Program-made: the position numbers and the translations under genes
In this document: positions 25,967 through 58,000 of the stretch, piece after piece
Position numbering within the stretch: the first letter of the stretch is position 1
How the letters are laid out: the number at the start of each line of letters is the position of its first letter
DNA from: Selaginella moellendorffii
Taxonomy: Eukaryota > Plantae > Lycopodiophyta
Length of the DNA: 64,000 nt
NCBI RefSeq assembly: GCF_000143415.4
Contig: NW_003314379.1
Location: 310,001 to 374,000, forward strand
Direction: 5' to 3'
The notes under the pieces: generated by a model
What the model was told of the DNA's origin: nothing
Databases searched by the model: none
What the model saw: the letters and a program-made list of their open reading frames with translations, nothing else

Positions 25967-26066
25967 NNNNNNNNNNNNNNNNNNNNNNNNNNNNNNNNNN
26001 NNNNNNNNNNNNNNNNNNNNNNNNNNNNNNNNNNNNNNNNNNNNNNNNNNNNNNNNNNNNNNNNNN
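25967..26066. other. Assembly gap (100 N)
   Basis: Run of N. Confidence 1.
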
Positions 26067-26324
26067 ATCACATTGCATTTTTAGCTGTATATTACAACCA
26101 GTAGAGGTGAATTACTCGCATAAAGGATAGAGAAGGAGCGTGGAACAGCAAAGGGGGGTTTTTAAAGAACTCCATATCAACATGGGTTTCAGACATTACT
26201 AAAAGGTGATCATGTTGCAGTTACTTTATTATTGAAGCAGAATAACCTGGTTAGTTATACTATTTGGTGAGTTTTGAAGCTTTAAATATATAATTTTTAT
26301 GTTGTTCATTGCCCAAGGAGTTCT

Positions 26325-28820
26325 TGTGAGATATAAATCCCTAAGCCCCAAAGTGGAGCCTAAAGGGTGCCATGTGGTTTGGACTAGAAGCTTCAACTTG
26401 AAAACTCGAGGGCAGAAGTGGAACTTCTAATGAAGTGCTCAAGGGATGAGCATGAAGCAATCGGTGAATGAGTCTCTAAAAAGGGACATAAGAAGGACTG
26501 ACACATGGCAAGTGTCATGACACATAGAAGTGTCAGGAACGAGTTTGAGATGGAGCTCTAAGATGGACTCGAGATGGAGTCCAAGATGGATTTGAGATGT
26601 AGTTCGAGATGGAGTCCGAGATGAACCCGAGATGCAATCTGAGATGGAGTCCGAGATGGACCCGAGATGGAGTCTAAGATAAAGTCCAAGATGGACCCCA
26701 GATGGAGTCTGAGATGGACCCCAGATGGAGTCTGAGATGGACCCGAGGTTGAGTCCAAGATAGACTTGAGATGTAGTTCGAGGTCAAGGCTAAGAAAGAG
26801 ACCGAGACCGAGACTGAGACCGAGACCGAGACGGAGGCCGAGACCAAGACGGAGGCTGAGATGGAGACGGAGGCCGAGATGGAGATGGAGACCGAGTCTG
26901 AGTTCAAATCCATGTCCAAGTCCAAGTCTAAGTTTGAGTTCGAGTTCAAGTCCAAGGGTGAAATCCCAAAGTGATCATCTCCCAAACCCTAGGGGGTTTG
27001 GTGAGCTCCAAAAGTATAGTAAGGGGGAGGACTTTAGTGGTGTTAATTTGGCTAAGAAAGGCTAGTATGACCAAGGAATGCTATATCCATGTGTTGGGTG
27101 ATGATATAACCATTGAGGAGTCCAAGGCTAGAGTGAATACAAATACACAAACAAAGTAGCTTGATGAAATGTTCAAAAGCCAGCTCTAGCTCCCTTGGGA
27201 GATCAAATGGTTAATGCTCCCAATTCAAGTATGGGTGGCACTACCTACTTGGATACCTAGCGTAGCTCATCAAAACCTCACTTTAACCACATAATTGGGG
27301 CACCCAAAAGTAGAAGGTAAGGAGAGTATCCACGAGGCTTGTGTCTTGCATAGGGCCACAATGTTTCGAAATGTCATCCCAAGGTCCTAATGTGGAAAGG
27401 AAGAGGAGAAGTTGTCTTGCATAAAGACCAAGGATATAGTTATGTGATAGGGAAGTCCTAGAAGTCAATAAGACTTAGTGGTCAGGCATTCAGGCATAGA
27501 CCCAAGGGCAATGTTGATGAACACTGCCAAGGATAGAGAGGGATTTGGCAGGGACTAAAGAAAGGATATTGGGGAAGGGTGTTTTCTATATTTCCAGACA
27601 TCCTAAGGACGTTAAGATGTGGTCATGGAATGACCACTCATGGATGGATGATTCAGTCTTTGGGAGATAAGATTGTGGTGCAAGTGGTCTTGGACTACTT
27701 GTGTGACAAAGGGGAATGGACATGGCCTTAGTGTAACAGGCAGATATATTAGTGGTACCTTTAGGTATTTGTCGTGGGATCAAACACATGGAGCATTTGG
27801 ACCAAGTGTTATGGTAGAATGGCATAAATGCCAGTCATGGGGCTAGTAAGTCCTTAAGTTGGGAATAGGACTTATAGAGGTTGTAAATAAGACACCTCCA
27901 AGTGGTTGAAGGTATAATTAAGTGACTAAAGTAGAATGGAAAATTTAGTCGCTTACAACTTAGTATCAAAGCTATTCCTTAGTCTGACTATTATTGGTGG
28001 CCAAGTATATCACCACTTGTATTGACATTGGAAGGTCCTAGGATTAGGCCTATCTTCGAGGAGTAGCAAGTCGGGAGGACGTAGCTCTTCATTGTAATTC
28101 ATGTGTGAACTTGTATGCAATATGGTAAATAGAAAGGGGCTAACAAGGGAACAACTTTGGGATCTTGGGAATAGTATAAAGTTTTCCTAAAAGAGTTGAG
28201 GATGTGATCCATATAAACATTTTATTTAACAAACTGGCTAATGTGGTTGTAGTGAACAACTACAATTGAGATCATAGGAATGATGGAAACTCCTAAACAA
28301 TCAAGGAGTCATAAGGTTATCTTCATATAGTTGAGGCTAATGCTCATGAATTTGAGACTAAAATTAATAACCTTGGAAAGTCAAATATGGATAAAAACAC
28401 AAGTCCTTAAAATAGTACCTGGGGCTAGCTTTAATAAATACTAGAACAACCCAAAAAGTTAGGGGTATATTTAAAGGATGAGTCAGTATTCTCATCATAT
28501 AGATGGATAGTCCTAAGGAGCAAAAGTAGCCCACAGAGAATAAAGAATAATCAAGTGTCAAAGTAATACTTGCAACGATGATACTTACAAGTAGGATATG
28601 AATACAAAAAGTTATATTTCAATGAGTTAACACCTCAAAAATAGCCATAAGGCTAGGACCTTATGGGTCGTTAAATTAGCAAAGTCAAAAAGGCTAAATG
28701 ACTCAAGTGGAATCAAAGAATAGTTCTAAAGGATTGATAAAAATATTTGAAAGAGGGGGGAAGTATCTAAATATGGGAACAGTGAGTATCTTATTGATAG
28801 CAAAATATGCCATACTAAAG
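26325..28820 (+). mobile_element. LARD family A, copy A2 (5' LTR, PBS and truncated internal region)
   Basis: LTR at 26325-27957 (TGTGAG...GCTTACA) with the repeat array and a decayed PBS TAGTATCAAAGC. The internal sequence matches 56990-57855 and then stops. Confidence 0.85.
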
Positions 28821-28829
28821 TTTAGTTGT

Positions 28830-30718
28830 TCTTTTGAGGATGGTAAATGAGTGGAATATAGATTTTGATGAAAAGTATGCTGTTAGTAATGATAGTCATA
28901 ACGATGAGGAAAAAACTCTCAATAGTGTCATAGTTGCTAGATTACTGAGGTTTAGAATGTCATTAAAGAGGTTAAGAATTCCATTAGGATTTCCTATTTT
29001 ATATGAACTTTCAAAGGTTGAATCAATCTTATATCCGTGATTACCATTGGTAAATTAAGCATTCTATAAGGATTATGGTATTATAGAATGGAAATCATCA
29101 TTAAATATTTGTGATAGCTAAAAAGTTGATTCTTGGTTGGAATTGTGAGAAAGTTGTTGGTCTCACAATTCTTATGAGGATAAGGTGAAGTTTGTTTTTT
29201 TTTTTTTGTGACAAAGCTCATGGACCATGCTTCTTTGTGGTGGAAGAACTACATCAAAACTACTTTTAAACCAATTTCTTAGAGTGATTTGAAAAAGTTT
29301 TTTTACACTTTGTTTGTCAAGAATTTTGAAAAAAATTATCTTGTGAACCAGTTGCTAAAAATCAAGTAGAGGACTTTGTCTTTGGATGCGTATGCCCAAT
29401 AGTTCCATGATCTTTGCCTTAGTCTTATAGATATTTTTAATGAACTGCTAAAGGTGTAACATTTTATCAAAAGTTTAAGCTCAATGGATATGCACCAAAA
29501 AGTCAAGAAGGATTTTCCAAAAATGTTGATTGATGCTATCACTAAGGCTTAAATCTTTTTGCCCAAACCATTATTCAACTCAGTCAACTCTAGTCAATGG
29601 GATGTCTATGGGGTAGTCAACCTGCCAATGTTTCATATTCAAGGAAGAAATGGCCATTAGTATATCATGGCTCAAAGTATGGAGATAATAATAAGGCTAA
29701 GAAATTTCATTTGGACTAAGGGAAAAAAAGACAAGGTAGAGGGCAATTATTTTCATTATCATAAGGTTAGGCATTAGAACAAGGATTGTTTTGAAGAGGT
29801 CAACAAATGTTAAGGTGACTAGTGGAATTTATAGACAATATTCTTTTATGGTTATGAGCCATAAGTTTGATGTTATACAGTGGAATTGGCCTATTCGAGA
29901 CAAAGAGTTGTATGTTGTGATTGTTGTTGTGAAGGAATGGCAACGTTATTTGTATGGATTAAACTTCCACTAAAACAGTGAAAAGGTTTAAAAATTACTA
30001 AATATTCAACACAAATTTTTATTTGTATTAATTCTACATTTATTAGTATAACAATTAATGTGGATTCAAACCATCAGTCTCTCCAATATTTCAATCATCA
30101 AAAGGACCTTCAAGGCCACTTTACTCATTGGCAAGTGTTTTTGCAAGAAATATTTGTTACAATACAATACAAGTATGGAGGCAACAATAAAGTGGTTAAT
30201 ACATTATCTAGGATAATAAATTCTATCTCATTCATGAAGATATCTAGCAATCTCTTGAGTGAGATTAAGGAGTTTATTGACTTTAGCTCCTTTATTAATG
30301 ATACTCGTGTGAAGGTTTTATTGAGGGATGTCTTTACAAATTTGAAAGGTGACAAGTTTATATCATTTGTGATATAAAATGAAATCTTAGTGAAAAAGGG
30401 ATATATAGTGGTTTTTCGTGTTGACAAACTTATCAAATAAATTTTGGTTGTCTCATGAGAGCCAAGTGCTAAGCATCTGAGGGTACTAAGAATCTATATA
30501 TTGGTGAAAAGGCATTTTGTTTTGCCTAGGATAAAGTTAAATGTTGAGAAATATGTATATGGTTACTTGACCTACTAGATAGTCAAAATTAATCATCAAA
30601 AACTTATTGGCCTCTATCATCCTCTATGTGTACATAAGAATAAGTGAGATAGCATCTCAATGGACTTTATCATTGGTTTGCCCAAAACCTTTCAAAAAAA
30701 TGATACTATGTGGATTGT
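28830..30718 (+). mobile_element. Highly decayed Ty3/gypsy remnant (gag, RNase H, integrase)
   Basis: WPIRDKELYVVIVVVKEWQRYLYG and NHQSLQYF (RNase H), and ISMDFIIGLPKT (integrase). AT-rich with many stops. Confidence 0.75.
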
Positions 30719-30913
30719 TATAAATAAATAAAAAATGACTTAAAAAATTATTTATAGAGATTTAAATATAAAGGGAAAGGGTCTATAGACAAAAGTGCAC
30801 CTCTATTAAGGATCTTGGGATATTTAAAGTTAAACATTCTTGGGTTTGAATAGTATTAGGTTGGATGACTTCCCAAGAAATCCAAATCTAAGAGCTTACA
30901 TTTGGTATTAGAG
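30719..30913 (+). mobile_element. Heavily mutated Cassandra-like LTR followed by a PBS
   Basis: Aligns with 12967-13160 (AAATATAAAGGGAAAGG...TGGGTTTGAATAGTATTAGGTTGGATGACTTCCCAAGAAATCC...GAGCTTACA at 30900), followed by TTTGGTATTAGAG. The left boundary is approximate. Confidence 0.75.
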
Positions 30914-31792
30914 AAAAACATGTTAAGAAATAATCTATAAAAATTTAAATATAAAAAGAAAGGGTTAACTATTGTAAATTGATATTGTTGTGGCTCCACA
31001 AGGTCTAGCATCACTCCTTCTCGCACCCATTCAGGCTCATGATCAGCATATAGTGGTGCAGGGAGTTGTTGTTTGTGTGGCCATGAAGCAGGTTGCAGTG
31101 GTATCACCAACAATTAGATAGTGCAGCCCAATGTCTAGATCACAGTTTGGTGGCCCTGAATGAGAAATGCTTTCTTTGAGTGTGTAAATCCTGGGCAACG
31201 GTGGAAATTATCCATCCCAGTAAGCTAGTTTATCTTGCCAGGGACATGGCAAGCAGTGAGAAGTTTGCGGTCAAGTATGTTCAACAGTACGGGTAGGCAC
31301 AAATGTGGGCTACACACCCCACAACCTGGCTGGAGGTGGAAATGGAGTACCTGGATAGTAAGACAGGCTGGATGCGGAAACACTCTGGGATTAGAGGGTG
31401 GTGTGTCTGAAGGCTGCTCACAGGTGAAAGTTGGCGAGACAAGCAGGCCACATATGACGTGCATAGCAACATGCATGACAACAATGTTAGGTTCATTGAC
31501 TTTGACTGGGCCATGGAGAGGGATCACTGTATCCAACCTTTATGACAACGATGGAGGGAGTTTGAACCAACAGGCCTATGATACAAGCATGATTTGTTCC
31601 TTTCACAATGCAGGCAGGATATGGAACTGAAGAATGTGTTTTTATTGACAGCAACAACAGAAGATTACTAGGCCTAAACCACTCTGGAAAGAAGATAAGT
31701 AAGAGATGATAGGGAGAAGAGAGTGCTCTATGCACAGGCTGCTAGTCAGATTTCAGCCACTTCTTAGTCAACACGCACGAGTGCAAGAGCTT

Positions 31793-33241
31793 TTAGAAGT
31801 GGTATCTTTTTGAACTCTTGGCGCTGTACGAATTTCTCGGCTTCACGCCAGGTTTCCATGCACAAATCCCAAACGCCAGGGCGTCCTTCCATGCCAGTAG
31901 CAACCAGTGCCCATCCCTGTACAAGCTAAACTTCTCGCCTCTCCAGATCAGCCTGGCTGTCTCGATAACTTGGTCGCTCAGAGGCAGCTGCTCGAATCCA
32001 GCTTTCTTTGCCGTCGAATCCCAGTAGTAGTATGGCCCCGGCCGTTCCACTCGATCCACCCCTTCACAGGCCACCACATTCATGATGCTCCTCTCCACAA
32101 ACTTTCTTGCGAAGCCAAGCTCTTGCGGATGATCCTTAAGAACCTCTCCAAAACCGTTTAGAATGTTGGCATAGTACGCAAGTGTCGCCTCAAAGCGCTG
32201 GACGAAGAACGGGGATGAGACGTTGGGGTCGGCGTTTGGCAGAGACTGGATCAACAATGCCGGCTGGAGCTTGAGCATGCGATCGAAGAACACTTTCCTT
32301 AGATTGTTTGCTGCGGTGGAGTCGTCCCTCAAGAATCGCAGTCTCCTGTTTGTGTTGATGACCACAAACTCGTTCAAGCTGTTGCACTGCGGCTGTGCGA
32401 GCTCCCAAGAGTCTGCAGTGATGTAGTTAAACTCAAACGGAATCCCACACTATTCTGCGAACTCGAGTAAATGCTTCCCAATCTGTGCACCATCTATCAT
32501 CCCAGACGAGTCGATTCCTGTCATCCTCAGCAGTGGAGCTCCCTCGGGTCGCTGAGATAAAGCTCGGATAAGCCACGGCCACTGGCTGCCATACAGTATC
32601 CCGTAGTCCACAATATGAATCCGCTTGGCTCCCTTGCACGCCTCGAGAATTATGTGATTCGAGATCACCTCGGTGGCGCTGAACCACGGGAGGTTCATGC
32701 ACAAAAGCCCCACGTAGCGCTTCTGAGAAACCTCTCTGGACAGAGCCGAGTAGAGCTGTGAACCACACCCTTTAAGCCTTGCTACCAGTGCGTTGACGAA
32801 GAACAATGCGGTCCTTTTTAAGTGGCTGTTTTCGGATGTCACTGAGTTCTTGATCAATCCGATGAGATTGTAAACCTGTGCCGAGTTCCTGGCTGCTACT
32901 GCTCTTGCGCACTCTCTGAGCAAGCTAAATACTTCCTGGTCGACCTGTTCTTGATCACTGTCCGGAGACTGGACGCAACCTCTTATGATGGAATTCAAGT
33001 CGTCCATGTAAGCCTGGTATCTGTTCTGCTGCGGGGTTGCAACCTCCTGCTCGTCACTATCACTATCCCCGTCTAAAAGCATCTTGGAAAGGTAACTCAG
33101 CGCAGGATCGTCCAGCTGCAAAACAGGAGCCGCAACTGGAAGTGGTTGAATTCTTACTTGGTGTTGCAAAAGGGCCTTCTGCAGCAGCGGAATCAAGCTG
33201 CCCGTTGTCATTTGCGACCTGTAGCCCTCTTCCTCCATCAT
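31793..33241 (-). pseudogene. GRAS-family transcription regulator (LISCL/SCL14-like), intronless, with one in-frame TAG at 32450-32452
   Basis: Motifs LSYLSKMLL, HIVDYGILYGSQWPWLIRALSQRPEGAPLLRMTGID, FFVQRFEATL, NVVACEGVDRVERP and terminal CAW (SAW motif). ORFs 32450-33289 and 31793-32377 are in the same frame across ...FAE*CGIPFEF. Confidence 0.9.
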
Positions 33242-33439
33242 GACCTCCAAAGTCAAAAACCCTCCAAGCCGGAAAGAATTCATATACAAGTCAAAAAGGT
33301 GTTCTGATTTACCTCAGAAATGTGATCACAATTGATCACATTCCCCGAATTTCAGAGAAAGATCGTATCAAAAAAGTCAATAGAAGGATCAGTGACTGCA
33401 TGTTTTCACATAAAAATGTGACGTGTTCTTGCCTGGATA

Positions 33440-41800: not shown

Positions 41801-41962
41801 CTATGCCATAAGTGAGCTTGAACAATGTCGCAATGAAGGAACGATGTATTCGAGTGGTGTCAGGGCTTCTATGCCATAAGTGAGCTTGAACGATGTCGAA
41901 TTTGTTGAAACCTTATATGCTATTTGATATGCCTATAGGGCATCGTAGATGCAATTGTCCTG
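38900..41962 (-). mobile_element. 3' part of an old non-chromovirus Ty3/gypsy element (Athila/Tat-like): integrase C-terminus plus a long downstream region with decayed ORFs
   Basis: AYQIAYKVSTNSTSFKLTYGIEALTPLEYIVPSLR and WEGPFFIQK (GPY/F motif) on the - strand. A 68-bp tandem duplication lies at 41761-41896. Charged or coiled-coil ORF remnants at 39000-40380. Confidence 0.6.
40400..40700 (+). mobile_element. LTR-less internal fragment of LARD family A
   Basis: TAGTCCTAAGGGGCAAAAGG...AATCAAGTG...GCATTTGGACTGAGGTGTGTTGT matches about 57525-57820. Confidence 0.7.
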
Positions 41963-42484
41963 TGTAAGCTCCTAAGTTTAGATTTCCTGGGAGGTCACCC
42001 AACCCAGTACTATTCAAACCCAAGGACATTTAACCCCAAATATCCCAAGACCCTTAACCGATTGGAAAAGGGGGTGCACTCTTGTTCATAGGCCCTTTCC
42101 CTCTATATTTGAACCCCAACGGATCGTCTCTCGAGTCGTTCCCTTTGGTTGCTTACAATCCACTATGCTTCCCTGCAAGTTCACGCCCTTGTGAACGGAA
42201 GCTGAGAGTTGTAGCTCTCCCGAGAGCCCCACTCTCTTGACACCCTACCCCTTGGGTCGAGCCCAGCGGGAGCAAATTGAACCAGCCAGATGTCAATCAA
42301 CATGTGGTGTGATTCCCCTAGCCAACCAACAGAGTCGGACCTGAGACCCCTCTGATACCAAATGTAAGCTCCTGAGTTTGGACTTCCCGAGAGGTCACCC
42401 AGCCCAATACTATTCAAACCCAAGGACGCATAACTTCAACTATCCCAAGACCCTTAACCGATTGGAAAAGGGGGTGCACTCTTT
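41963..42484 (-). mobile_element. Cassandra-like TRIM module (LTR-PBS-internal-PPT-LTR) forming most of the 3' LTR of element B
   Basis: 195-bp LTR at 41963-42157, internal region 42158-42362 with PBS TGGTATCAGAG, and a second LTR from 42363. Each LTR carries a 5S rRNA-like segment. Confidence 0.85.
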
Positions 42485-42950
42485 GTCATTTTGGTTATGC
42501 TTTTGGGGATCCTTTAGCCTACAACACCTCGGGGAGTCGGTTCCTTACAACTCCACCACCCATAAAAGAAGTTCGATGCCCACATCGAACGTCTCTTTTT
42601 ATCCTACAACTTGTTGACCATGTCTCCGGGGGCATCCCCCCACTTAGCGGTGTGCCTAAGTTAGCCTCCCTAGCCAAGAGCCCATAACAACGGAGTATAG
42701 ATGTCCCTATACTCCTCACCTCACCACGCCCTAGTATGGGGTCGGGACTTGAACCCAGCCTTGCTTTACTAGGGGGTTGGGACTTGAACCCAACCTCCAT
42801 AGAATATGTCTACGGATTCGACATCCCCGCGGGGAGTCGGGCGTAGTGCCTTACGCCTGGTCGACCTAGCTAACCCATGCTAATTAGCTTACCTTCGGCG
42901 CACCTTCGGGTCCCAACATATGCCATTGCTCAACTTCACAAATTGATACT

Positions 42951-45900
42951 TTAATTGAACTTTGCATAAGTATATAGAGTTTTGCCTTGCAGAAATTCCT
43001 CTACTAGATCTCGCGCGTTCGCTAGGTTCTCCTCCGGTTCCCATGTTGCTTCGCAGTGTGGAAATCCTTTCCACTTCACATGGAACTCTCTCACCTCGTG
43101 TTCTTGTCGCTTGCTCTTGCGCGCATTGAGGATGACCTCGACTTCGTATTCCTCTTCCCCTTGGATAACCTCAGATAAAGGTCTTACTTGGTCCTTGCGA
43201 AGCGGATCCTCAAAGTACGGCTTGAGTAAGTTCATGTGGAACACTGGGTGCATCTTCTCCATCTCTCGAGGAAGTCAGAGTCGGTAAGCCACTTTACCCA
43301 TTCGTGCCTCAATCTTGTAAGGCCCCGCGAACTTGCTTAAGGAACTCAAGATCAATTCATTTACAGGAATACATGTGTTTTTACCTTTGGGTCAACTTTT
43401 GGTTGATCCCACTTGGTAGCCTGAGGTTCTTGGTGTTCAGCCACACTTCTCCCCAGCTTGGAACTCTACGTTCTGGCGCTTCTGGTTCGCGTACTTGGTT
43501 TGCCTTTGTTGCGCCCGTTCCAAGGAATCCCTCACCAGATTCCAAATGTTGAGTCTTTCTGCCATGAATGCCTCCATTGCGGGTAGCTCTCCATGATACT
43601 TGGCCACACCGAGTTCCACAGGACCTTCAATAGCTCACCCATTGATGACTTCCCATGGACTCACCCCGATACTCGAATGTGGTGAGTTGTTATAACACAT
43701 TTCTGCAAGTCCCAAATGACTTACCCAATCGGTCTGGTCTCCCAAGACATAGCATCGCAAATAATCCTCCAGCTGCCTATTCACCCTTTCCGTTTGTCCG
43801 TCTGTCAAGAAGTGTTAGTGCCACCAAACTTGACTTAATACCCCATACCTATTTGTGGGTGATAGGTTGTGCTGAATTTCAACTTGGTGCGATACTGTTC
43901 CAGGAGAGTCCTCTAGAACCTACTAGTGAAGATTTTATCTCGATCTGATATTATCTCTTCCGGCCTTCCCCGCACTCGAACCACTTGTTCAAAGAACAGC
44001 TTTGCCACACCTTCCGCATCCACTTCCGTTGTGGTGGGTATGAAATGTGCCATTTTCGAAAATCAATTCACCACCATGAATATCGCATCAAACCCCTTGC
44101 TTGGGGGAAGTCCCGTGATGAAGTCCATCGTAAGACATTTCCACAAACGATCTGGAATTGGGATGCTTTGCAACAAGCCCCCACTAGCCTTAGTCATGGC
44201 TTTGACCTGCTGACATGTTGGACATGTCTTTACATAGTCTTGGACGTCCTTAACCATATCTGGCCAATGGTACTTCCTTTTGAGTAAGCCCATCGTCTTG
44301 GGCACTCCGCCATGTCCCGCAAGAGGTCCGTCATGACACTCTTCTAAGGCTACCTTCCTTAGTTCCCCTTCTGGAACATACACCCTCGTTTGCTTCTATA
44401 GATGAGTCCGTTGCATTCCACATAGCCCGTTTTCTCTTCCGTTGGCAGCTCACCTCTCTGGTGAGCTTCTCGTGCCTCTAGATTCCTTAGCAACACTTCT
44501 TGTGCTAGACCATCGTTCTCATATGCTGTCCGCACATCGTCCCAGAAGGTTGTTGTTGCGCTAGATATCACCAACCTTAAGCTTGCTTTTCGACTTAGCG
44601 CATCCGCCACAATGTTGCTCTTCCCAGGCTTGTACAGAATCTCGCAATCAAACTCAGCCAAGGCATTGGCCCACCGACCTTGTTTCCCTCTCAGATAAGA
44701 AGTGTGACAAGAAGTGTTTCGTTGCCACATTATCTGTGTAAACCTTGAAGTGTCTCCCAAGGTAGTGTCGCCACTCCTTGAGCGCATTGACCACCGCAAA
44801 CAATTCCTTCTTGTGGGCAGGCCACTTTCGTTGAGCCTTGTCCAACTTCTTTGAGAAGAACGCTACTGGATGGTTGTCTTGCTTCAAAACTGTGCCTAAC
44901 GCAAAGTCTAAAGCATTCGTTTCTACCTCTAAGTTCTTACCAAAGTCTGGTAATGCCAACACGGGAGCCTTCCTCAACTTCCCTTTGAGGTGGACGAATG
45001 CCGCCTCGCATTCCACTATCCATACCATCTTCCCTTTTCCTGTTTGGTCCGTTAAGGGCAGGGCTACTCTCGAATAGTGTCTGATAAACTTTCCGTAGTA
45101 GTTGCATAGCCCCAACAACGCCCTCAACTCATGTACATTCGATGGTCGCTCCCATTCCTGGATCGCTTGGATCTTCTCCGGGTCCACCTTGAGCCCGTCC
45201 TGGCCCACCATATGCCCAAGAAACTTTACCTCTTGTTGAGCAAAGTCACATTTGCTCTCTTTAGCATACAGTTTGTGTTCCCTTAGTTTCTCAAACACCT
45301 TCGCCAAGTGTTCGGCATGCTCCTCTAGCGTCTCGCTATAGATCAGGATGTCATCGATATAGACGACCACGAAGTGATTTAGATAGGGTACAAAGATGTG
45401 GTTCATCAGTGCCGAAAATGTTGCTGGCGCATTGCATAGCCCAAAGGGCATCACCAGAAACTCAAAGCTCCCATACCTCGTTCGACAGGTTGTCTTCTCG
45501 ACATCTTCTTCGGCTACCCGATCTGGTAGTATCCTGACCTTAGGTCAATCCTTGAGAAATATTTTGCCTTTCCCAACCTATCAAATAGGTCCTCAATTAT
45601 TGGCAAAGGGTACTTGTTCTTCTTTGCATACTTGTTGAGCAACCGGTAGTCTATGCATATGCGCATAGAACCATCTTTCTTTTTCACAAATAACACCGGC
45701 ACCCCATACGGCGACAACCTAACATACCCTTTGTCCACTAACTCCTCTAGTTGGCACTTGAGCTCCTTGAGTTCTTTTTCGTTCAAACGATAGGGGGGAC
45801 AAACCACCGCCTCAGCACCCTCGACTAGCTCAATCTTATGTTCTATTGGTCGTGCGTGGGCAACCCCGCCGGTAGCTCCTCCGACATGGTATTCTGGAAT

Positions 45901-47704
45901 TGGTCCAACACCCGCTGAATCACTAAAGGTACTTCTTCCGTTCCTGTCTTTTTGTCACTCTTTACCGAGAGTAAGCACAAAAACGCTGCCTTAGTTCCTT
46001 TAGTGAGTTGTCCTCTCGTGGACACCAGATTTAAGTAGGAATCTTTGGCCTTGCTTTGCCCTACCTTTAGATCCTGGGCCTCCACCCTAGATCTTCTTCC
46101 TTGGGCATTCGCCAATACCACAAGGTTCCTACCTTGTCCATGCATGGCTACCACAAACCGATTGAACCAATCCATTCCAAATATCACGTCAAATCCCGCC
46201 ATGTCCAACACGGTGAAATCCATGTCTACTTTCCATGTCCCTACTTCGACTCTCGCTTGTCGAAGTACCTCATCGGTGCTTTGGCTACCTTGAACAAACT
46301 CTATAGTCCTTGGTTCACCTAGCCGCTGCACCGTTAGTCCGGCTTGCTGGACTATGTCTGCAGCCACAAAATTATCCGAAGCACTTGTGTCAATAAGGAT
46401 CTTAACAAAGCTAAATCTGAGCTTCCCTCGGAGGGCTAGTAGATGTCGCAAACGACTCTCTACCAAAGTTGCTCGTGTAATGAGTAACTTTGAGTTAGGG
46501 ACTGGATCACATACCTCAGTTTGGACTTCACCCGAGTTGATGGCCATATTGGCTCTGGCCTTCTTCGGGTAGGGACATTCCCTCGAAAAGTGTCCCGCTT
46601 CACCGCAATTGTAGCATACGTTGTTTCCCACGCTGCTATATGACTTGACCTTCTCATCCGTGGGTTTGTCTCTTTTTGCTTGACTCCCCCACGTACTCGC
46701 TCGCTGGCCACCGGATTTGCCTTTCCGGAACCTCGAGGACTCATTCTTAGAGAAACTCTTCTTGAATTTCCCCCTGCTATACGTTCCCCTTGGTTTGGCC
46801 CCTTTGCTAAATGTGGATCTTGACCCCGTCGTGTTCCCCTTTCGCAGGTTATCGTTGAAATGCACCTTGATGGCCGCATCCAACGCTTCCTTGTAGTTGG
46901 TCAGGTTCCACCGCATCACCTCATTGCGAGCCCAGGTTTGCAAACCTGATATGAAGGCATGGAACGCATCCATATCCCTCATGTCTGTCACAAGTATCCT
47001 CTTTGCCATAAACCCATTCACATACTCCTAAATGGTTCTGGTCTGTTTCAGCCTACTCAGCTAGTCCCTTAGATGCAAGGTAGCATTCGGAGGAACGTAA
47101 GTCGTGCGGATCCTCGCCTTCATCATTTCCCAAGTGGCCACCGGTCCTTTGTTAGCCTCTGTCGTTCTCCACCAAGACTTGGCATTATCTGCCAAGTATG
47201 GTTTTGCACATGGGACCTTCTCTGAGCTTGGTAACCGCAACGCTCGGAAGTAGTCCTCCATATCGTAAAACCAATCCTCCACCACTTTATAGTCGTTCAC
47301 TCCCTTGAAGACCGGTGGGGGCTTTGGTTTGTACTTGGGAACTACCTAAGGGATTGATTCCACTTCGGTTTGTTTCGACCTTGTCTAGTCCCTGCCAAAG
47401 GGTCTGCACCTTCTGCGCTGCCAGCATCTGCAGTCTTTCGCTTTTTCTTCCACCTCTCGTCACGCTTTAGCTTGCGTACGAGAGTCTCTAGCAGGGCATT
47501 GGTCTACGCCAATTGTCCTTCTAGAACGTCCAATCAAGCCTTGGACAACCAAACCTCGCCACCGGACTCCTGTTTGGAAGTTTCCTCACTAGAGTCCTCC
47601 TCATACAAGGATTCCTCATCCATAGCCTTTTGTTCGACCGGAGGCTCCAGCTCTGGCGGAGGCTCTGTCTCCACCTGGGTTCGCTTAAGCCCTGCCTTTG
47701 CCAT
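42951..47704 (-). pseudogene. gag-pol of chromovirus copy B (few disabling lesions)
   Basis: Start MAKAGLKRTQVETEPPPELEPP, knuckle CYNCGEAGHFSREC, protease [31 protein letters not shown] (CHDGPLAGHGG...CPTCQ) and chromodomain EEYEVEVILNARK...VKWKGFPHCEATWEPEENL. Confidence 0.93.
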
Positions 47705-48819
47705 CCGTCTCCACCTGGGTTCGCTTACACCCTGCCTTTGCCATCTCCCTGCAATCCACCTCTATCCTTCGTTAGAACTGAGGAAAAGGCTCCGATACCA
47801 AATGTAAGCTCCTGAGTGTAAGCGACTAAATTTTCCATTCTACTTTAGTCACTTAACCACACTTCCAACCACTTGGAGGAGTCTCACTCACAACCTCCAT
47901 AAGTCCTATTTCAGACTTGGGCTTGCTAGCCCCAAGAATGGCATCCCCGCCACTCAACCTTTGCACTTGATCCAAGTGCTCCATGTGTCCGATCCCATAA
48001 CCGACACCCCAAGGTACCACCAACATATCAACCCGTTACGCTAAGGCCATGCCCCTTTACCCTGGTCACACCGGTGGTCTAACACCACCTACATCACAGT
48101 CCCATCTCTCAAGGACTGGGCCATCCGTCCATGAGTGATCATTCCAGATCCACTCCTTAGCATCCTTAGGATGCCCACAGACATGGGGAATAGCCTTCCC
48201 CAATATCCCTTTTCTGGTCTTCACCAAATCCCTTTCTGCCCATGGCCGTGTTCGCCAACACTGCCACTAGATCAAGGCCCACAGGCCCGACCACTAAGTC
48301 CCACGGTCCTCTGGGACTTCCTCACCACACGACTGTGTCCTTGGTCACTACCCCAGAGGACTGCTCCTCTTCCTTTCCACAGTCTGGGCCTTTGGGACAA
48401 CATTTCGGAACACCGTGGCCTTACGCGAGCCACCTGGGTACTCTCCCCGCCTTCCGCCCTTGGGTGCTCTAGCCATGGGCTTAGAGCGAGGTTCCGTTGA
48501 GCCACGCCTGGTATCCAAGTAGGTAGTGCCACCCACACTTGGAGTGGGAGCATCGGCCAGTCGATCTCCCGGGGGAACCAGAGCCGGCTCTTGAACACTT
48601 CACCAAGCTACCCCGCTTGTCGGTCCGTGTTCACTCTAGTCTTGGACTTCCCAGTGGGCAGCTCATCACCCAACACTGGGTCCGGCCTTCCTGGGCCAAA
48701 CTGGCCTTTCCTGGCCAAACTGGCTCCACCACAGTCCTCCCCCTACTATACTTTTGGAGCTCACCAAACCCCCCAGGGTCTGGGAGACGAACGCTTTGGG
48801 CTTTCACCCTCTCATGCTC

Positions 48820-49425
48820 CGGATTCGGACTCGGACTCGGACTCGGACTCGGACTCGGACTCGGACTCGGACTCAGACTCGGATTCGGACTCGGACTCGG
48901 ACTTGGGCTCGGCCTCGGTCTCGGTCTCGGTCCCGATCTCGGTCTCGGTCTCGGTCCCGATCTCGGTCTCGGTCCCGGTCTCGGTCTTGGTCTCGGTCTC
49001 GACTTCGGACTCCATCTCGGGTCCATCTCAGACTCCATCTTGGACTCCATCTCGAACTCCATCTCGGGTCCACCTCGGACTCCACCTTGGACTCCATGTC
49101 GGGTCCACCTCGGACTCCACCTCAGACTCCATCTCGGGTCCATCTCGGACTCCATCTCGGACTCCACCTCGGACTCCACCTCGGACTCCATATCGGGTCC
49201 ATCTCGGACTCCATCTCGGACTCCATTTTGGGTCCATCTCGGGTCCACCTCGGACTCCACCTCGGACTCCATCTCGGGCTCCATATCGGGTCCATCTCGG
49301 ACTCCATATCGGGTCCATCTCGGACTCCATCTCGGGTCCATCTCGGACTCCATCTCGGACTCCACCTCGGACTCCATATCGGGTCCATCTCGGACTCCAT
49401 TTTCGGTCCATCTCGGGTCCACCTT
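48820..49425. repeat. 6-bp/12-bp tandem repeat array inside the family A LTR (GACTCG, GTCTCG, then GACTCCATCTCG variants)
   Basis: Directly visible. Equivalent arrays lie at 54810-55038, 55270-55970, 61270-61815, 62823-63290, 26540-26950, 24900-25060 and 11780-12030, with related arrays in the C LTRs (13490-13735, 19680-20320). Confidence 0.95.
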
Positions 49426-52400
49426 AGACACTTCCACGTGTCATGTGTTGGTCCTTTTGGGTCCCTTTTTGGAGCCTCGCCTATGGCTCGCTTCGTGCTC
49501 ATTCCTCGAGCACTTCGTTGGGAGTTCCACTCCCGCTCTTGACTTTTTCAAGTCGGAGCTTTTGGTCCAAACGTGTTACGCTCGTTTGGCTCTCGCTTCG
49601 GCCACTACCACGTGGCGCCCTTTCCGGCTCTACTTTGGGGCCTAGGGATTTTGTGTCTCACAACTCCACCACCCATAGACGAAGTTCGATGTCCTCATCG
49701 AACGGTAAACCATTTTATAAAGTAACACCCGCATGTGTTACCATTTCCATCCTTGGCACCTAGCCAATATTTGTCAATGGTTTGACATTGAAGGCTCACC
49801 ATGCCTTCTCCATATTCGTCAATGGTTTGCCATTGAAGGCTCACCATGCCTTTTGCATATTCCTCAATGGTTTGACACCAAAGGCTCACCATGCCTTACC
49901 TATCCTCTAAGGAGGGTAGTCTCTCCAACTTAGAGATTGATTGGACCACATGTAGTGGTTCTCTCCTTTTATTGGTTTAGTTCTCGCTAAACCTCTTAGA
50001 GACCCTTCTCTAAGTCAATCCCACTACTCCTTCTCAAGTAGTCTCAATTTCCATCTATTGAACGTTTGCACCTTGGAACTTTTACTCTTTTGACTTTTGG
50101 AAGTCAATTTCCTAGGTGTCTCCAACACCTTGCATTGCATAGATTGTGCAACTCCACTTCCCCATCCTAGGAAGTTCATTACTTGAGGGCACCATCATCC
50201 TCTCTTTTATTTCGTGCCACCTTGGGCACTAAGTTCCATTTATCATACTTTGTGCTAGGGCTGTCCATGGCCCTATCATTTGGCTACCTTGCCGCTCCCT
50301 CCCTTGGAGCTTCCACTTTTGCCAAATCGGAGCAATTCGGAATCCATCCTTGGAAACACACTTCTTTTCCCGCAATTTGTTAGCGTCCAACACATTAGTG
50401 TTCCTCGCCTAACTTTGCCACTTGGATTCCTTCCAAGGGATTCCATGGCCCTATCCTGGCCACTCATCTTTTGCTCCTATCCGTTGATTGTTGCACCCAA
50501 CAACACCGAATGTCTACCTCCCTCCTTGAGGTATTCCTTTGATTCCATAGCAAAGGTTTTGCTTTGCCAAGACTAGGGTGTTCACCCCTAGTAAGTCTCT
50601 TTAGCACCTTCTGCTGTGGGCTCTATCCACGGCCCAACTTGTGACCCTCCCATGGGTCTCTTATAAAGACTACTTTCCTTGCTCACACTATGCCATCGCA
50701 ATGACATAGCTTACGTGCTTTTCCCACTTGGTCACCTTGACCAAGCCACACCATCATCAATAGTTCAAATCAACACTTTGAATTAGGAACCTTATTCCTT
50801 AACCCAAACAAAGACCTTGTCCTTATTTAGCCACAAGATCACCTAGTGATCTCACCTCGGCACCTTAACAAGTTTGCCAATAGGTACTAGGTCTTTTAAA
50901 CCTTCAAATTGTTGACTATAACCCCGGGGGCATCCCCCACACTTGGCAGTGCACCCAAGCCAGCCCTTACGGCCAAGGGTTCATAGCAACTGAGATTAGG
51001 TGTCCCCATCTCACTCACCACGTCCTTGGTGCCACTTGCACCAAAGCGTTCAAGTTAGATATGCCAAGCTTTCACACTAAGCAATCTAACCGTGCATCAC
51101 GACTCCGAGGCATCCCTCGCTTGGCGGTGTGCCCAAACCAGTCTCCCCACTGAGAGTCCATGACCACCAAAATATGAGTGTCCTCATATTCCAAACCATC
51201 ACCACGCCCTAGTGATTTGGGACTCGAACCCAAGCACTAGAGGGTCGGGACTCGAACCCAACCTCCATATATGCATCTACGGACGGCATCACACAAGATG
51301 CCTGGCGTGACTCCCCACGCCGGTGCACCAACCTATATTTAAAGCGCGCTACAAATCACAGCTTAGGAACCTAGTTCCTTCGCACTGCCAAGTCCTCTCA
51401 CTTGACAAGCCTGTGATCATGCATGGACTCCTCCATGCTTGGCCCCATGGGCCACCCCTTTGAAGTTGGCTCCTTCAACTAGGGTATTCGTTCCCCCCCA
51501 ACTTGCCAATCTCACTTAACAAGTCATCCAGCCACTGTAATATGGTTCATGCATAAGCGTGAAAGCCCTTGATCCTTGACTTTCGTTCAAAGCCTTCTCT
51601 TTGAAGGCTCGGGAACTACTTCCCTAACCTTGAAAGCCTTGCCTTATGGCAAGCTTCAAGACCACGCTTCTGCTGTGCCACTCTGATTTCGCGTGTTCCT
51701 TGAACCATTTATGCTTGGCCTTTCTAGGTACTAAGCTACCTAGAATCCTCTTTGGGAACCTTGAAGGAACTTTGTCCCTCAGCTTGCTAAGGCCTCCCTT
51801 TTTGCAAGCTTTATAGTTGTCATATAGTCTAACATGGACAATTCCATATTTTAGACTCTCCATGGCATCACGGTTGCTAGCGGCAACACCCTCGAGCCCC
51901 CACTTGATTCTCCACTCCCAGCTGGCATAACCAACCTTGGTTATGCCCTTCGATTCCTGTGGTTCGGTTCTATCCCCTTACTTCTTGCTTTTGGCTTCAC
52001 ACCTTTCCTTCGGTCATTCTCCTCCAGACCAGGAGGATAGCTTTGCACTTTCTATCATGCCTTAGCAAGTATTCTTAGGGATGAACCTACCCAATAGCCC
52101 ATGGAGTGGTTCCTCAATCCGGGTATGCTCACCTTATAATCCCACACACTGGGATTACATTGTTGCTTATGGGCCTTTACATGCCCATCACTAGCCTTGC
52201 CAAAATTCCATTTTTGGCTTTGTCCAACTCGGGTAGACAGTCCTCTCCTGTCTCCGCAACCTTAGACATTTGGATAGCACCTTCTATCCATCATTGGCTA
52301 GGGACTTAGTCCCTTGGGTCTTATCCATTGCCCTCGCGACATCAAACACCACCTTCTGGTGTTCTAGAGTGTTCGGGTGTCCCAATGATGGCTTTCTTGA

Positions 52401-55038
52401 CAATGAGTATTTCCTTTTATGACATTGACTTACTATATCGCAACATAAGCAACTTATCCCCCGTAAGGGTATATCCAACTTCCTTATGCTATTAAGAAGT
52501 CTTGGGTAGCTACCTTCTACCCGTTTAGCTAGTTATTTTGCACCTCTTGCTTAGTTGCCTCATAGTTGTCAAGTCCTACAACTCATTGCTTGGTGCTTCC
52601 ACACCTCCATCATTATCTGGATCACCACACTCCAACTGCATGCTCTGCAGCTTAGGCTATGCCATTCTCGTTTCCATTGGGATTCCTTTAGCAAGGGGTT
52701 CTCATGAACCCACCAACATAGCCTCAAGGTATCACACCTTGGCACATTTGGTGTCTCCACACCATCAGCTCCACAAGCCTACCTCTATGACACTTCCCCT
52801 TCGTGTCTAAGTTTTTGCCAAGACCAACACCGCCCTTTCTCATGCTAGCCATCCGTTAACACTGCACCATAGAGGTCCCACACAACTTTGTGTCAAAGTT
52901 GTTTTCTTCTGGGAACACCTTTCCCATAACTTTAGCATGGCACATTTTGCCATCGATGAGATACCCTCTGTTCTCATCCTTGGATCCTATGATCCCCCCC
53001 CATCCTTCGTGGGGTACAACACACCTTAGTCCAAATGCTTCCATCAGTCCTTTTAGGACCATCCCTTGACTCTACTTGAGTCATCCAGCAGTTTTGGACT
53101 TGGTTAATCCACAGACCCGTAAGGTCCTACTTGTGAGGCACTAGCTCACTGGAATACACTTCTTGCATTCCTGTCCCACTCAAAAGGACTATTTTCACAA
53201 GTGTTACTTTGACACTTGATTTTGTTCTCTGGGGGCCACCTTTGCCCCTTAGAACTACTTGTCCATGTGATGAGAATACCACTCATCTTTAAGTACACCC
53301 CCCAACTCCTTGGGTTGTTCCAGCATTTATTAAAGGTAGCCCCGGCTACCATTTCAAGGACTTGAGTCCTCTTCCGTATTTGACCTCCCACGGTCATTAC
53401 CTCTGGTCTCACATTCATGAGCACCAACCTCAACTATATGAGGATAATCTTGCGACTCCTTTATTGTTTTGGAGTCTCTATCTTTTCCGTGATCCCAACT
53501 ATAGTTGTTTACCACAACTACCTTAGCCAATTTGCTGAGACAAATGCTCATCCGGATCACATCCTCAACTCAATGAGGAAAACCTTGCACTGTTCCCAAG
53601 ATCCCAAAGTCGTTCCATTATTGGCCCTTTTCTATCCACCACCTCGTCTACAAGTTCACACATGAACTGTAATGGAGAGCCATGTCTTCCCGACTTGCTA
53701 CTCCTCAAGGATAAGCCCACTCCTCGGACCTTCCAATGCCAACACTAGTGGTGATATACTTGAGCACCAATAAAAGTCGGACTAAGGAACAGCTTCGATA
53801 CCAAATTGTAAGCGACTAAATTTTCCATTCTACTTTAGTCACTTAACCACACTTCCAACCACTTGGAGGAGTCTCACTCACAACCTCCATAAGTCCTATT
53901 TCAGACTTGGGCTTGCTAGCCCCAAGAATGGCATCCCCGCCACTCAACCTTTGCACTTGATCCAAGTGCTCCACGTGTCTGATCCCATGACCGACACCCC
54001 AAGGTACCACCGACATATCAACCCGTTACGCTAAGGCCATGCCCCTTTACCTTGGTCACACCGGTGGTCTAACACCACCTGCATCACAGTCCCATCTCTC
54101 AAGGACTGGGCCATCCGTCCATGAGTGATCATTCCAGATCCACTCCTTAGCATCCTTAGGATGCCCATAGACATGGGGAATAGCCTTCCCCAATATCCCT
54201 TTTCTGGTCTTCACCAAATCCCTTTCTGCCCATGGCCGTGTTCGCCAACACTGCCACTGGATCAAGGCCCACAGGCCCGACCACTAAGTCCCACGGTCCT
54301 CTGGGACTTCCTCACCACACGACTGTGTCCTTGGTCACTACCCCAGAGGACTGCTCCTCTTCCTTTCCATAGTCTGGGCCTTTGGGACAACATTTCGGAA
54401 CACCGTGGCCTTACGCAAGCCACCTGGGTACTCTCCCCGCCTTCTGCCCTTGGGTGCTCTAGCCATGGGCTTAGAGCGAGGTTCCGTTGAGCCACGCCTG
54501 GTATCCAAGTACGTAGTGCCACCCACACTTGGACTGGGAGCATCGGCCAGTCGATCTCCCAGGGGAACTAGAGCCGGCTCTTGAACACTTCACCAAGCTA
54601 CCCCGCTTGTCGGTCCGTGTTCACTCTAGTCTTGGACTTCCCAGTGGGCAGCTCATCACCCAACACTGGGTCCGGCCTTCCTGGGCCAAACTGGCCTTTC
54701 CTGGCCAAACTGGCTCCACCACAGTCCTCCCCCTACTATACTTTTGGAGCTCACCAAACCCCCCAGGGTCTGGGAGACGAACGCTTTGGGCTTTCACCCT
54801 CTCAGGCTCTGGACTCGGACTCGGACTCAGACTCAGACTCAGACTCGGACTTGGGCTCGGCCTCGGTCTCGGCCTCGGTCTCGGTCTCGGTCCCGATCTC
54901 GGTCTCGGTCCCGGTCCCGGTCTCGGTCTCGACTTCGGACTCCATCTCGGGTCCATCTCGGACTCCATCTCGGCCTCCATCTCGGGTCCACCTCGGGTCC
55001 ATCTCGGACTCCACCTCGGACTCCACCTCGGACTCCAC

Positions 55039-58000
55039 TGTGAGACACAAAATCCCTAGGCCCCAAAGTGGAGCTGGAAGGGCGCCACGTGGTAGTGGCC
55101 GAGGCGAAAGCCAAACGAGCGTAACACGTTTGGACTAAAAGCTCCAACTTGAAAGGTCGAGAGCGGGAGTGGAACTCCCAACAAAGTGCTCGAGGAACGA
55201 GCACGAAGCGAGCAATAAGCGAGGCTCCAAAAAGGGACCCAAAGGGACCAACACATGACACGTGGAAGTGTCCGAGATGGACCCGAGATGGAGTCCGAGG
55301 TGGAGTCCGAGGTGGACCCGAGATGGACCCGATATGGAGTCCGAGATGGAGTCCGAGATGGAGTCCGAGATGGGACCCGAGATGGAGTCCGAGATGGGAC
55401 CCGAGATGGAGTCCGAGATGGAGTCCGAGGTGGAGTCCGAGGTGGAGTTCGAGGTGGACCCGAGATGGACCCGATGGAGTCCGAGGTGGAGTCCGAGGTG
55501 GACCCGAGATGGACCCGATATGGAGTCCGAGATGGAGTCCGAGATGGGACCCGAGATGGAGTCCGAGACGGACCCGAGATGGAGTCCGAGATGGAGTCCG
55601 AGGTGGAGTCCGAGGTGGAGTTCGAGGTGGACCCGAGATGGACCCGAGATGGAGTCCGAGGTGGAGTCCGAGGTGGACCCGAGATGGACCCGATATGGAG
55701 TCCGAGATGGAGTCCGAGATGGGACCCGAGATGGAGTCCGAGATGGGACCCGAGATGGAGTCCGAGATGGACCCGAGATGGAGTCCGAGATGGAGTTCGA
55801 GTTGGAGTCCGAGATGGACCCGAGATGGAGTCCAAAGTCGAGACCGGGACCAAGACCGAGACCGGGACCGAGACCGAGACCGAGATCGGGACCGAGACCG
55901 AGACCGAGGCCGAGCCCAAGTCCGAGTCCGAGTCCGAATCCGAGTCCGAGTCCGAGTCCGAGTCCGAGTCCGGAGCCTGAGAGGGTGAAAGCCCAAAGCG
56001 TTCGTCTCCCAGACCCTGGGGGGTTTGGTGAGCTCCAAAAGTATAGTAGGGGGAGGACTGCAGTGGAGCCAGTTTGGCCAGGAAAGGCCAGTTTGGCCCA
56101 GGAAGGCCGGACCCAGTGTTGGGTGATGAGCTGCCCACTGGGAAGTCCAAGACTAGAGTGAACACGGACCGACAAGCGGGGTAGCTTGGTGAAGTGTTCA
56201 AGAGCCGGCTCTAGTTCCCCCGGGAGATCGACTGGCCGATGCTCCCAGTCCAAGTGTGGGTGGCACTACCTACTTGGATACCAGGCGTGGCTCAATGGAA
56301 CCTCGCTCTAAGCCCATGGCTAGAGCACCTAAAGGCGATAGGTGGGGAGAGTACCCAGGTGGCTCGCGTAAGGCCACGGTGTTCCGAAATGTTGTCCCAA
56401 AGGCCCAGGCTGTGGAAAGGAAAGGGAGCAGTCCTCTGGAGCAGTGACCAAGGATGCAGTTGTGTGGTGAGGAAGTCCCAGAGGACCGTGGGACTTAGTG
56501 GTCGGGCCTGTGGGCCTCGATCCAGTGGCAGTGTTGGCAAACACGGCCAAGGGCAGAAAGGGACTTAGTGGGGACTGACAGAGGGATATTGGGGAAGGCT
56601 ATTCCCCTTGTCGGTGGGCATCCTAAGGATGCTAAGGAGTGGATCTGAGATGACCACTCACGGATGGTTTGCCTAGTCTTGGAGAGCCAAGATTGGGATG
56701 CAAGTGGTATTGGACTACCAGTGTGGCAAAGGTGATTGGGCATGGCCTTAGCGTAACGGGCTGCCATGTCGGTGGTACCTTTGAGTGTCGGTCATGTGAT
56801 CGGACACGTGGAGCACTTGGACCAAGTGCAAATGTTGAGTGGCATGGATGCCATTCTCGGGGCTAGCAAGTCCCAAGTCCTGGATTGGACTTATGGAGGT
56901 TGTGAATGAGACTCCTCCAAGTGGTCGGAGGTGTGGTTAAGTGACTAAAGTAGAATGGAAAATTTAGTCGCTTACAATTTGGTATCGGAGCTGTTCCTTA
57001 GTCCGACTTTTATTGGTGCTCAAGTATATCACCACTAGTGTTGGCATCGAAAGGTCCGAGGAGTGGGCCTATCCTTGAGGAGTAGCAAGTCGGGAAGACA
57101 TGGCTCTCCATTACAGTTCATGTGTGAACTTGTAGACGAGGTGGTGGATAGAAAAGGGCCAATAATGGAACGACTTTGGGATCTTGGGAACAGTGCAAGG
57201 TTTTCCTCATTGAGTTGAGGATGTGATCCGGATGAGCATTTGTCTCAGCAAATTGGCTAAGGTTGTTGTGGTAAACAACTAAAGTTAGGATCACGGGAAA
57301 GATAGAGACTCCAAAACAATAAAGGAGTCACAAGATTATCCTCATATATTTGAGGTTGGTGCTCATGAATGTGAGACTAGAGGTAATGACCGTGGGAGGT
57401 CAAATACGGAAGAGGACTCAAGTCCTTGAAATGGTAGCCGGGGCTACCTTTAATAAATGCTGGAACAACCCAAGGAGTTAGGGGTGTACTTAGAGATGAG
57501 TTGGTATTCTCATCACATGGACAAGTAGTCCTAAGGGGCAAAGGTTGCCCACAGAGAACAAAATCAAGTGTCAGAGTAACACTTGTGAAAATAGTCCTTT
57601 TGAGTAGGACAGGAATGCAAGAAGTGTATTCCAGTGAGCTAGTGCCTCACAAGTAGGACCTTACAGGTCTGTGGATTAACCAAGTCCAAAACTGCTAGAC
57701 GACTCAAGTAGAGTCAAGAGATGGTCCTAAAAGGACTGATGGAAGCATTTGGACTGAGGTGTGTTGTACCCCACAAAGGATGGGGGGGGATCATAAAATC
57801 CAAGGATGAGAACAGAGGGTATCTCATCGATGGCAAAATGTGCCATGCTAAAGTTATGGGAAAGGTGTTCCCAGAAGAAAACAACTTTGACACAAAGTTG
57901 TGTGTGACCTCTATGGTGCAGTGCTAACGGATGGTTGGCATGAGAAAGAGCGGTGTTGGTCTTGGCAAAGACTTAAACACGAAGGGGAAGTGTCATAGAG

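Follow-up and report, generated by a model that had tools for sequence, protein, structure and literature searches.

The stretch of DNA analysed here (the window) comprises 64,000 nucleotides of the Selaginella moellendorffii genome (contig NW_003314379.1, positions 310,001 to 374,000), with a GC content of 45.5%. A gene with short exons that resembles the mitochondrial complex I 75-kDa subunit (Fer2_4 and NADH-G_4Fe-4S_3 domains) lies at 1-1794 on the minus strand, and a GRAS-domain gene at 31793-33313, also on the minus strand, is split by an in-frame stop at 32450-32452; database matches to this pseudogene were none at a first search and then three at 41% identity, two of them from a fern and a liverwort. 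A 100-N assembly gap (25967-26066) is located far from element B, the composite retroelement with which we are mainly concerned.

Several LTR elements surround B. Element C (13407-21111, plus strand, TSD TTGGT) is an ordinary, older member of B's chromovirus family, with ~1.1-kb LTRs bearing poly-G tracts; most of its PBS and 5' leader is deleted just after the 5' LTR (14526-14531). Nested in its 3' LTR is a 393-bp TRIM (19883-20275, plus strand, TSD CCGGG), whose 104-bp LTRs show one difference. This small TRIM has ~70 bp, from the TATA to the predicted R, in common with the LTR of the 5S-bearing TRIM described below, has no 5S part, and looks like a 5S-free relative or progenitor of it. The 5S-bearing TRIM is itself present outside B as a solo LTR (12967-13160, plus strand), with flanks TATTT and CATTT that match at 4 of 5 positions, and as a decayed PPT-LTR-PBS segment (30700-30916, plus strand, nhmmer E 1e-43), likely the inner LTR of a tandem TRIM array. 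Members of a further family, D (47817-63528, 7830-12418 and 21112-28822), carry 12-bp tandem repeats in their long LTRs; their 4-kb internal region gave no match to the proteins of B, and with the B/C family they share the PBS, the 3' end of the LTR and a stretch of 42 bp ahead of the PPT. The family gives the impression of a LARD-type dependent of the B/C machinery that was active recently. One of them, the non-coding D1 (47817-63528, minus strand, TSD CTCAG), holds a second, D2 (55039-62822, plus strand, TSD TCCAC), whose LTRs are 99.6% identical. Since LTR divergence (K2P) falls from 0.056 in B to 0.010-0.033 in D1 and 0.004 in D2, D1 and D2 are younger than B, as the nesting order demands. 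A second gypsy fragment (protease and RT, the latter 60% identical to that of B) is found at 9344-11353 on the minus strand, between 166-bp direct repeats (9344-9509 and 11188-11353) and within a D-type element; it could represent a short-LTR gypsy family, and with it a rival helper for the TRIM.

Element B, on the minus strand, is a decayed chromovirus gag-pol between near-identical units of a non-coding, 5S-bearing TRIM. Its 587-bp 3' composite unit (42549-41963) starts with the head of a chromovirus LTR, a U3 start of 72 bp (42478-42549) that includes the microhomology AAGAGT (42478-42483), equivalent to positions 75-80 of the TRIM LTR. From there the sequence continues as a partial TRIM LTR, L3 (42363-42483), a predicted R-U5 with 5S box A, IE and box C; as a non-coding internal region of 205 bp (42158-42362) with a TT spacer, a Met PBS (42360-42350), a PPT and no T4 run; and as a full 195-bp TRIM LTR, L4 (41963-42157), with a TATA-like box at LTR positions 51-56, a T4 run at 89-92 and box A from 123. 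The candidate target-site duplication TCCTG follows at 41958-41962 (plus strand), and its other copy would fall outside the window. The head is identical to the 5' LTR of C at 60 of 71 positions and to the 3' LTR at 61 of 71 (85%), with a score of 102 against a shuffle mean of 21 that none of 2000 shuffles reached.

The chromovirus internal region (42550-47802, 5253 bp) comprises a TT spacer, a 13-bp Met PBS (47800-47788), a broken gag-PR-RT-RH-INT and a PPT, and is 88% identical to that of C. Pfam matches to gag, protease, RT, RNase H, the integrase zinc finger and a chromodomain were obtained in a broken reading frame, and the domain order, with the chromodomain 3' of gag-PR-RT-RH-INT, marks B as a chromovirus (Ty3/gypsy). 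The chromodomain is encoded by a separate 309-bp ORF (42954-43262; PF00385, E 8e-16), in which a Y/W/F aromatic cage was read by eye. On the other side of gag-pol, the TRIM LTR L2 is split by D1, so that its last bases (the duplicated CTCAG plus 9 bp, 47803-47816) stand directly before the gag-pol PBS, with chromovirus sequence at once after the TT spacer, and its first 186 bp lie at 63529-63714. Beyond them are a second TRIM internal region (63715-63919), identical to that of the 3' unit at 197 of 205 positions, and L1 (63920-64000), inside which the window ends; the 5' end of B would be expected at 64106 or 64114. Over 64000-63529 this unit aligns with the 3' unit gap-free, with 447 of 472 positions identical (94.7%). 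The first-pass annotation had described the C-type head and its switch at AAGAGT into the TRIM, the same module on the far side of gag-pol and the flanking TCCTG, and the three observations are borne out.

The 5S-bearing TRIM and the Cassandra lineage

The Cassandra lineage of TRIMs, said to have been described by Kalendar in 2008, is the natural comparison for the short element. The complete TRIM unit measures 595 bp, with LTRs of 195 bp and an internal region of 205 bp that shows no similarity to gag-pol. The Rfam 5S rRNA model (RF00001), which the first-pass annotation had named as a check on the 5S rRNA it saw in these LTRs, matches five copies (L1 to L4 and the solo LTR) with 25-33 bits, none of them reaching the gathering score of 38; E-values are 0.006-0.75 over 4227 families, the best becoming ~1.5e-6 against the 5S family alone. 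The 5S likeness stands but is partial, being confined to the promoter region, some 55 bp at 63-93% of the LTR, and the 5S string quoted in that annotation was a blend of copies rather than the sequence of any one LTR. The published Cassandra query would miss the TRIM, in which box A and box C are each off by one position; a box A-box C pattern that was relaxed after the sequence had been seen gave three matches, against none in 100 shuffles. Box C (42390-42405 and equivalents) reads GGGCTGGGTG or AGGCTGGGTG, not AGGATGGGTG, and Cassandra is described as mirroring shifts in the box C of its host (accessible part of PMC10853983). Folding of the predicted R-U5 gave z-scores of -0.4 to +1.0, none of the four copies being more stable than shuffled sequence. 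In the 5S-derived 3' arm (41963-42053 and 63923-64000, minus strand), both strands of a stem depart from the 5S consensus in their letters and yet retain standard pairs, a hint of selection on RNA structure.

In the accessible text of PMC10853983, Cassandra is defined by the 5S promoter alone. The TRIM is non-autonomous, non-coding and shorter than 1 kb; its LTR pairs are 86-94% identical, where at least 74% is asked for, and come with a Met PBS and a PPT; and 5S box A, IE and box C are recognisable in each LTR, in matches that lie below the RF00001 gathering score. Judged by these sequence features, the TRIM would be of the Cassandra lineage in the structural sense of PMC10853983, an assignment that does not extend to kinship with fern or angiosperm Cassandra. 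Selaginella is absent from the Cassandra lists in the accessible supplements of PMC7215508 and PMC10853983. Cassandra has been dated to the ancestor of ferns and angiosperms (PMC10886601), and it has also been said, loosely, to occur in all vascular plants (PMC12486564). It could be that the element is one of the eight spikemoss TRIMs of PMC4717578 under another name, as far as the accessible part of that paper goes, or that it is already in Repbase. Neither the 5S TRIM nor the 5S-plus-PBS pattern had any match in the metagenomes and viral contigs scanned.

Identity of the chromovirus

SM1-Galahad of S. moellendorffii, a member of the Galadriel clade, has been described as an element of ~7.5 kb with poly-G-bearing LTRs of more than 1 kb, a 13-bp Met PBS and a 309-bp chromodomain ORF (PMC3350952, in part). 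The chromovirus of the window agrees with this description, C measuring 7.3 kb with ~1.1-kb poly-G LTRs and B having a 13-bp Met PBS and a separate chromodomain ORF of exactly 309 bp. The chromodomain is of type I with an aromatic cage, a feature which, together with the tRNA-Met PBS, is that of Galadriel elements, and the cage is reported to be confined to non-seed plants (PMC6317226). Tcn1 elements mostly have no tRNA PBS according to the accessible text of the same source, so the tRNA-Met PBS of B argues against a Tcn1-like chromovirus. The best database matches to the RT of B are 56-58% identical and mostly unnamed. The B/C chromovirus is therefore probably SM1-Galahad-like and of the Galadriel clade, by comparison with a published description rather than by alignment or tree. 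Together with the SmoRetroS4-like sizes of the TRIM nested in C and the GC content, this also makes a spikemoss the probable host on sequence grounds.

Formation of the composite element

The position of the junction is what bears most directly on how B arose. Box A starts at position 123 of the TRIM LTR, from which the Rfam model numbering predicts a Pol III start at 73-74, and the usual convention of box A at +50 leads to the same position. The chimeric junction, at LTR positions 75-80, coincides with this predicted 5' end of the TRIM RNA, and it is at an RNA 5' end that minus-strand DNA must jump. The start is a prediction from box positions, and the TRIM LTR has seven exact matches of at least 6 nt to the initial 280 nt of C's 3' LTR, of which AAGAGT is one, so that the coincidence is worth about 1 in 7 to 1 in 20, which is modest evidence. 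With the TATA-like box at 51-56 and the T4 run at 89-92, an R region of 18-20 nt would be predicted, and that of Cassandra is 18 bp (PMC10886601). The spacer between LTR and PBS is TT in B, as in the TRIM, and ATT in C, D1 and D2; a TT spacer is what priming on TRIM RNA predicts.

We infer the following course of events, in a particle that would have contained both TRIM and chromovirus RNAs. A tRNA-iMet would have primed at the TRIM PBS, and reverse transcriptase would have copied one complete TRIM LTR, then the internal region, then another R-U5; the template could have been a tandem read-through transcript, or two TRIM RNAs bridged by an ordinary jump. At the RNA 5' end (LTR position ~74) it would have jumped, via AAGAGT, to a chromovirus RNA instead of a TRIM R, and would then have copied the chromovirus U3 head, the PPT and gag-pol. 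Plus-strand priming at the chromovirus PPT would have doubled the 587-bp composite into both LTRs, and integrase would have inserted the chimera once. That B was made in this way, in one round of reverse transcription with a mis-targeted strand transfer between co-packaged TRIM and chromovirus RNAs, the chromovirus being the leading helper candidate, is the reading that we favour, with a probability of roughly 0.7. Complexes formed by template switching and flanked by TSDs are known (PMC1950507, in part). With about 1 kb of the chromovirus LTR missing, the product was probably inactive from the moment of its insertion.

Variation between the two units is consistent with their having been copied together. 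L1 (from 63920) and L3 (ending at 42363) carry two variants, at LTR positions 118 and 123, that have no counterpart in L2 and L4, and none of the 16 variable sites of the TRIM LTR backs a different pairing. Because a normal TRIM is born with identical LTRs, the same mismatched pair would be hard to gain independently in both units. The variants had been taken by the first-pass annotation as the sign of a chimera copied as a unit; the pairing holds, but in the contigs both variants are common polymorphisms of the TRIM family and not private marks. Both units of B also carry a minority internal allele (42342 and 63899), the other letter being found in 89-96% of the contig depth at this site (X1, X4, X7; depth sums, which are not copy numbers) and in 15 of 15 RNA reads. 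Decay, on the other hand, is uneven between the units, with 6 transitions in one and 17 in the 3' unit (p=0.035), and three control LTR pairs decayed evenly (51/46, 6/5 and 8/10 transitions). The unevenness could be due to chance or to conversion of the 5' unit.

A rearrangement at the DNA level is unlikely, but it would account for the uneven decay by giving the 5' unit another history. According to it, a tandem TRIM array had an internal segment swapped for chromovirus DNA through microhomology at the PBS and AAGAGT, or neighbouring insertions recombined, and L1 is an ordinary LTR. Such arrays are typical of Cassandra (PMC7215508, in part), and the window contains a tandem remnant at 30700-30916. 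Two precise microhomology events would be needed, however, one of them at the predicted RNA 5' end, and an unequal crossover should make the inner LTRs alike, whereas L2 and L3 differ at both diagnostic sites. That B is an assembly chimera of two abundant repeats is very improbable. None of the 32 contig pieces listed bridges the junction (8678 more pieces exist besides, and contigs drop rare forms), and the best public runs contain 54-61% of the sampled words. On the other side, the joins rest on similarities of 6 bp and ~20 bp, which are too short for overlap assembly, and the two junctions and two nested, TSD-bounded insertions agree with each other.

It can also be the case that the chimera became a family of its own, in which gag-pol transposed repeatedly from 5S-bearing composite LTRs. 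This is what the first-pass annotation had implied in stating that the chimera went on to transpose, and we hold it to be quite unlikely, a shade more so than the rearrangement. Both units are present, B has kept the full set of domains, and the TATA-like box at 51-56 could serve Pol II. A single round of reverse transcription already yields both composite LTRs, however, so that no later spread is needed, and Pol III, starting in L2, would run into T4 at 47787 and into eight further T4 runs within gag-pol. Both parents, the ordinary TRIM and the ordinary C-type chromovirus, are abundant in contigs of two organisms, and the best-supported loose ends at both junctions in public contigs are ordinary TRIM LTRs and ordinary C-type LTRs; the contigs listed show the parental forms only. 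One RNA run, sampled to ~12% (36 reads), covered the TRIM at a depth of 9-12 and gag-pol at no more than 1.9; the TRIM reads map to one strand, which would be the sense strand for a library prepared by the common stranded protocols. These reads carry the alleles of other copies at 3 of 3 listed sites; the TRIM family appears to be transcribed, and transcription of B itself was not seen. Compared with seven X4 contigs of high depth, the internal region of B shows 80 differences in ~2,190 bases (3.6%, summed by hand with one low-depth record excluded), which places B near the main sequence of its family when it was formed. B is thus probably a single event, with no sign of a family. Of the template switching between co-packaged RNAs proposed in the first-pass annotation, the junction at the predicted TRIM RNA 5' end and the TRIM-type spacer speak in favour, and the subsequent transposition is not upheld.

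A candidate helper and comparison with known systems

If B arose in one round of mis-targeted reverse transcription, the simplest source of the particle is the B/C chromovirus family itself, which makes it the leading candidate helper. The TRIM and the B/C family have in common an atypical PPT core (GTGGTGGA), an LTR start TGTAAG.AAC and an LTR end GCTTACA, which are lacking in the 104-bp-LTR TRIM; the D family likewise has a PPT and LTR ends that match those of the TRIM. The likeness of the LTR ends, already pointed out in the first-pass annotation, is weak when taken alone, since the score of the first 80 bp was reached by 173 of 2000 shuffles and that of the last 40 bp by 2 of 2000. Spacer length also differs, being 2 nt in the TRIM and 3 nt in the chromovirus. 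A 160-bp likeness between L4 and the interior of the 5' LTR of C (0 of 2000 shuffles) was rejected as unproven, the profile search having missed the region; among eight TRIM-by-C-LTR pairs, those passing were L4 (0 of 500) and L2 (1 of 500), both against the 5' LTR of C.

The first-pass annotation had regarded the chimera as identifying this chromovirus as the helper, which is too strong for one event when generalist mobilisation is argued in print and the TRIM has a lineage link elsewhere. The chances that Galahad is the regular mobiliser of the TRIM are about even, and they are lower for such a partnership extended to Cassandra in general. Only slightly less probable is that the co-packaging was accidental and that the TRIM usually relies on a different gypsy element, or on whatever machinery is active, which would be compatible with the one-round origin. 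The TRIM LTR core is kin to that of the 104-bp-LTR TRIM over ~70 bp (0 of 2000 shuffles, z ~10, nhmmer E 4e-4), and the latter has the same sizes as SmoRetroS4 (393/104), for which a 4373-bp gypsy partner has been proposed (PMC4717578, Table S16). Short LTRs and a spacer of 2 nt, as in the TRIM, are found in SM-Cranky, and the survey that describes it found no intact SM1-Galahad (PMC3350952, in its accessible part); mobilisation by generalists is argued in a 2026 survey (PMC13570524); and the chimera is a single event and the end matches are short. Against an accidental encounter, the PPT and LTR ends of the TRIM match those of the B/C and D families and not those of the 104-bp-LTR TRIM, and where an LTR core came from does not have to tell what mobilises the element today.

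The autonomous partner of Cassandra was given as unknown in papers of 2020 (PMC7215508) and 2024 (PMC10886601). In the literature searched, part of it in excerpt, neither a named Cassandra helper nor a Cassandra-gag-pol chimera was found, though partners or lycophytes may be treated in Kalendar 2008 and Maiwald 2021. A broader proposal can be put forward tentatively, and we give it clearly less than even odds: that Galadriel chromoviruses are the long-sought helpers of Cassandra-type TRIMs, the machinery of Galahad having carried the RNA of the 5S TRIM through priming, copying and integration, and the break being the trace of the Pol III start, and that the lineage is present in lycophytes, in which case it would be either much older than the cited age of 250 million years or of a second origin from a 5S-free TRIM. 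LTR similarity is not expected to lead to the partner of a Pol III TRIM. A chimera at the obligatory point of strand transfer is evidence of another kind, as it tells which RNAs met in one particle, and it gives a testable helper candidate, the Galadriel clade, which would be the first to be named for such elements. As a general method, genomes could be screened for places where a TRIM start site is joined to an autonomous element. The presence of a 5S-bearing TRIM in a lycophyte moreover matters for how old Cassandra is and whether it arose once, although the one decayed copy that is B settles neither this question nor that of the helper.

Among known systems, the TRIM is closest in build to Cassandra, with which it shares its non-coding nature, the Met PBS and PPT, a 5S control region in each LTR, and tandem and solo forms. 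Its dimensions (595/195/205 bp) approach those of the Cassandra of the fern Nephrolepis (565/187/191 bp), and its 5S domain stops a few bases before the PBS, as in fern Cassandra, where the PBS lies 8 nt from the 5S part (PMC7215508, in part). It differs in its 5S core, which at ~55 bp and 63-93% of the LTR departs from the core of ~70 bp at 25-75% that the accessible text of PMC10853983 gives in descriptive terms, and in being found in a lycophyte and fused to gag-pol. Ajax, a TRIM that likewise has kept only the promoter part of 5S, is of independent origin in ribbon worms and has a tRNA-Leu PBS (PMC10886601, in part). With SM1-Galahad, C and B share size, poly-G LTRs, PBS, chromodomain ORF and the occurrence of many copies ~4% apart, but the poly-G tracts are of 7-14 nt here and of 11-25 nt in SM1-Galahad, and B has lost the LTR of its family beyond the first 72 bp. 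SmoRetroS4 and SmoLTRA4 (PMC4717578, in part) are a spikemoss TRIM and its proposed gypsy partner, and the TRIM of the same size in the window has the LTR core of the 5S TRIM; that pair, however, has whole LTRs in common (98%) and was read as a case of deletion derivative, with no 5S reported in the accessible text. As for the complexes of PMC1950507 (in part), they resemble B in being fused cDNA from more than one RNA, in a single insertion with matching outer repeats, but in them the LTR is the joint between two members of the same family, whereas in B a Pol III-type TRIM and an unrelated autonomous element are joined at a 6-bp microhomology.
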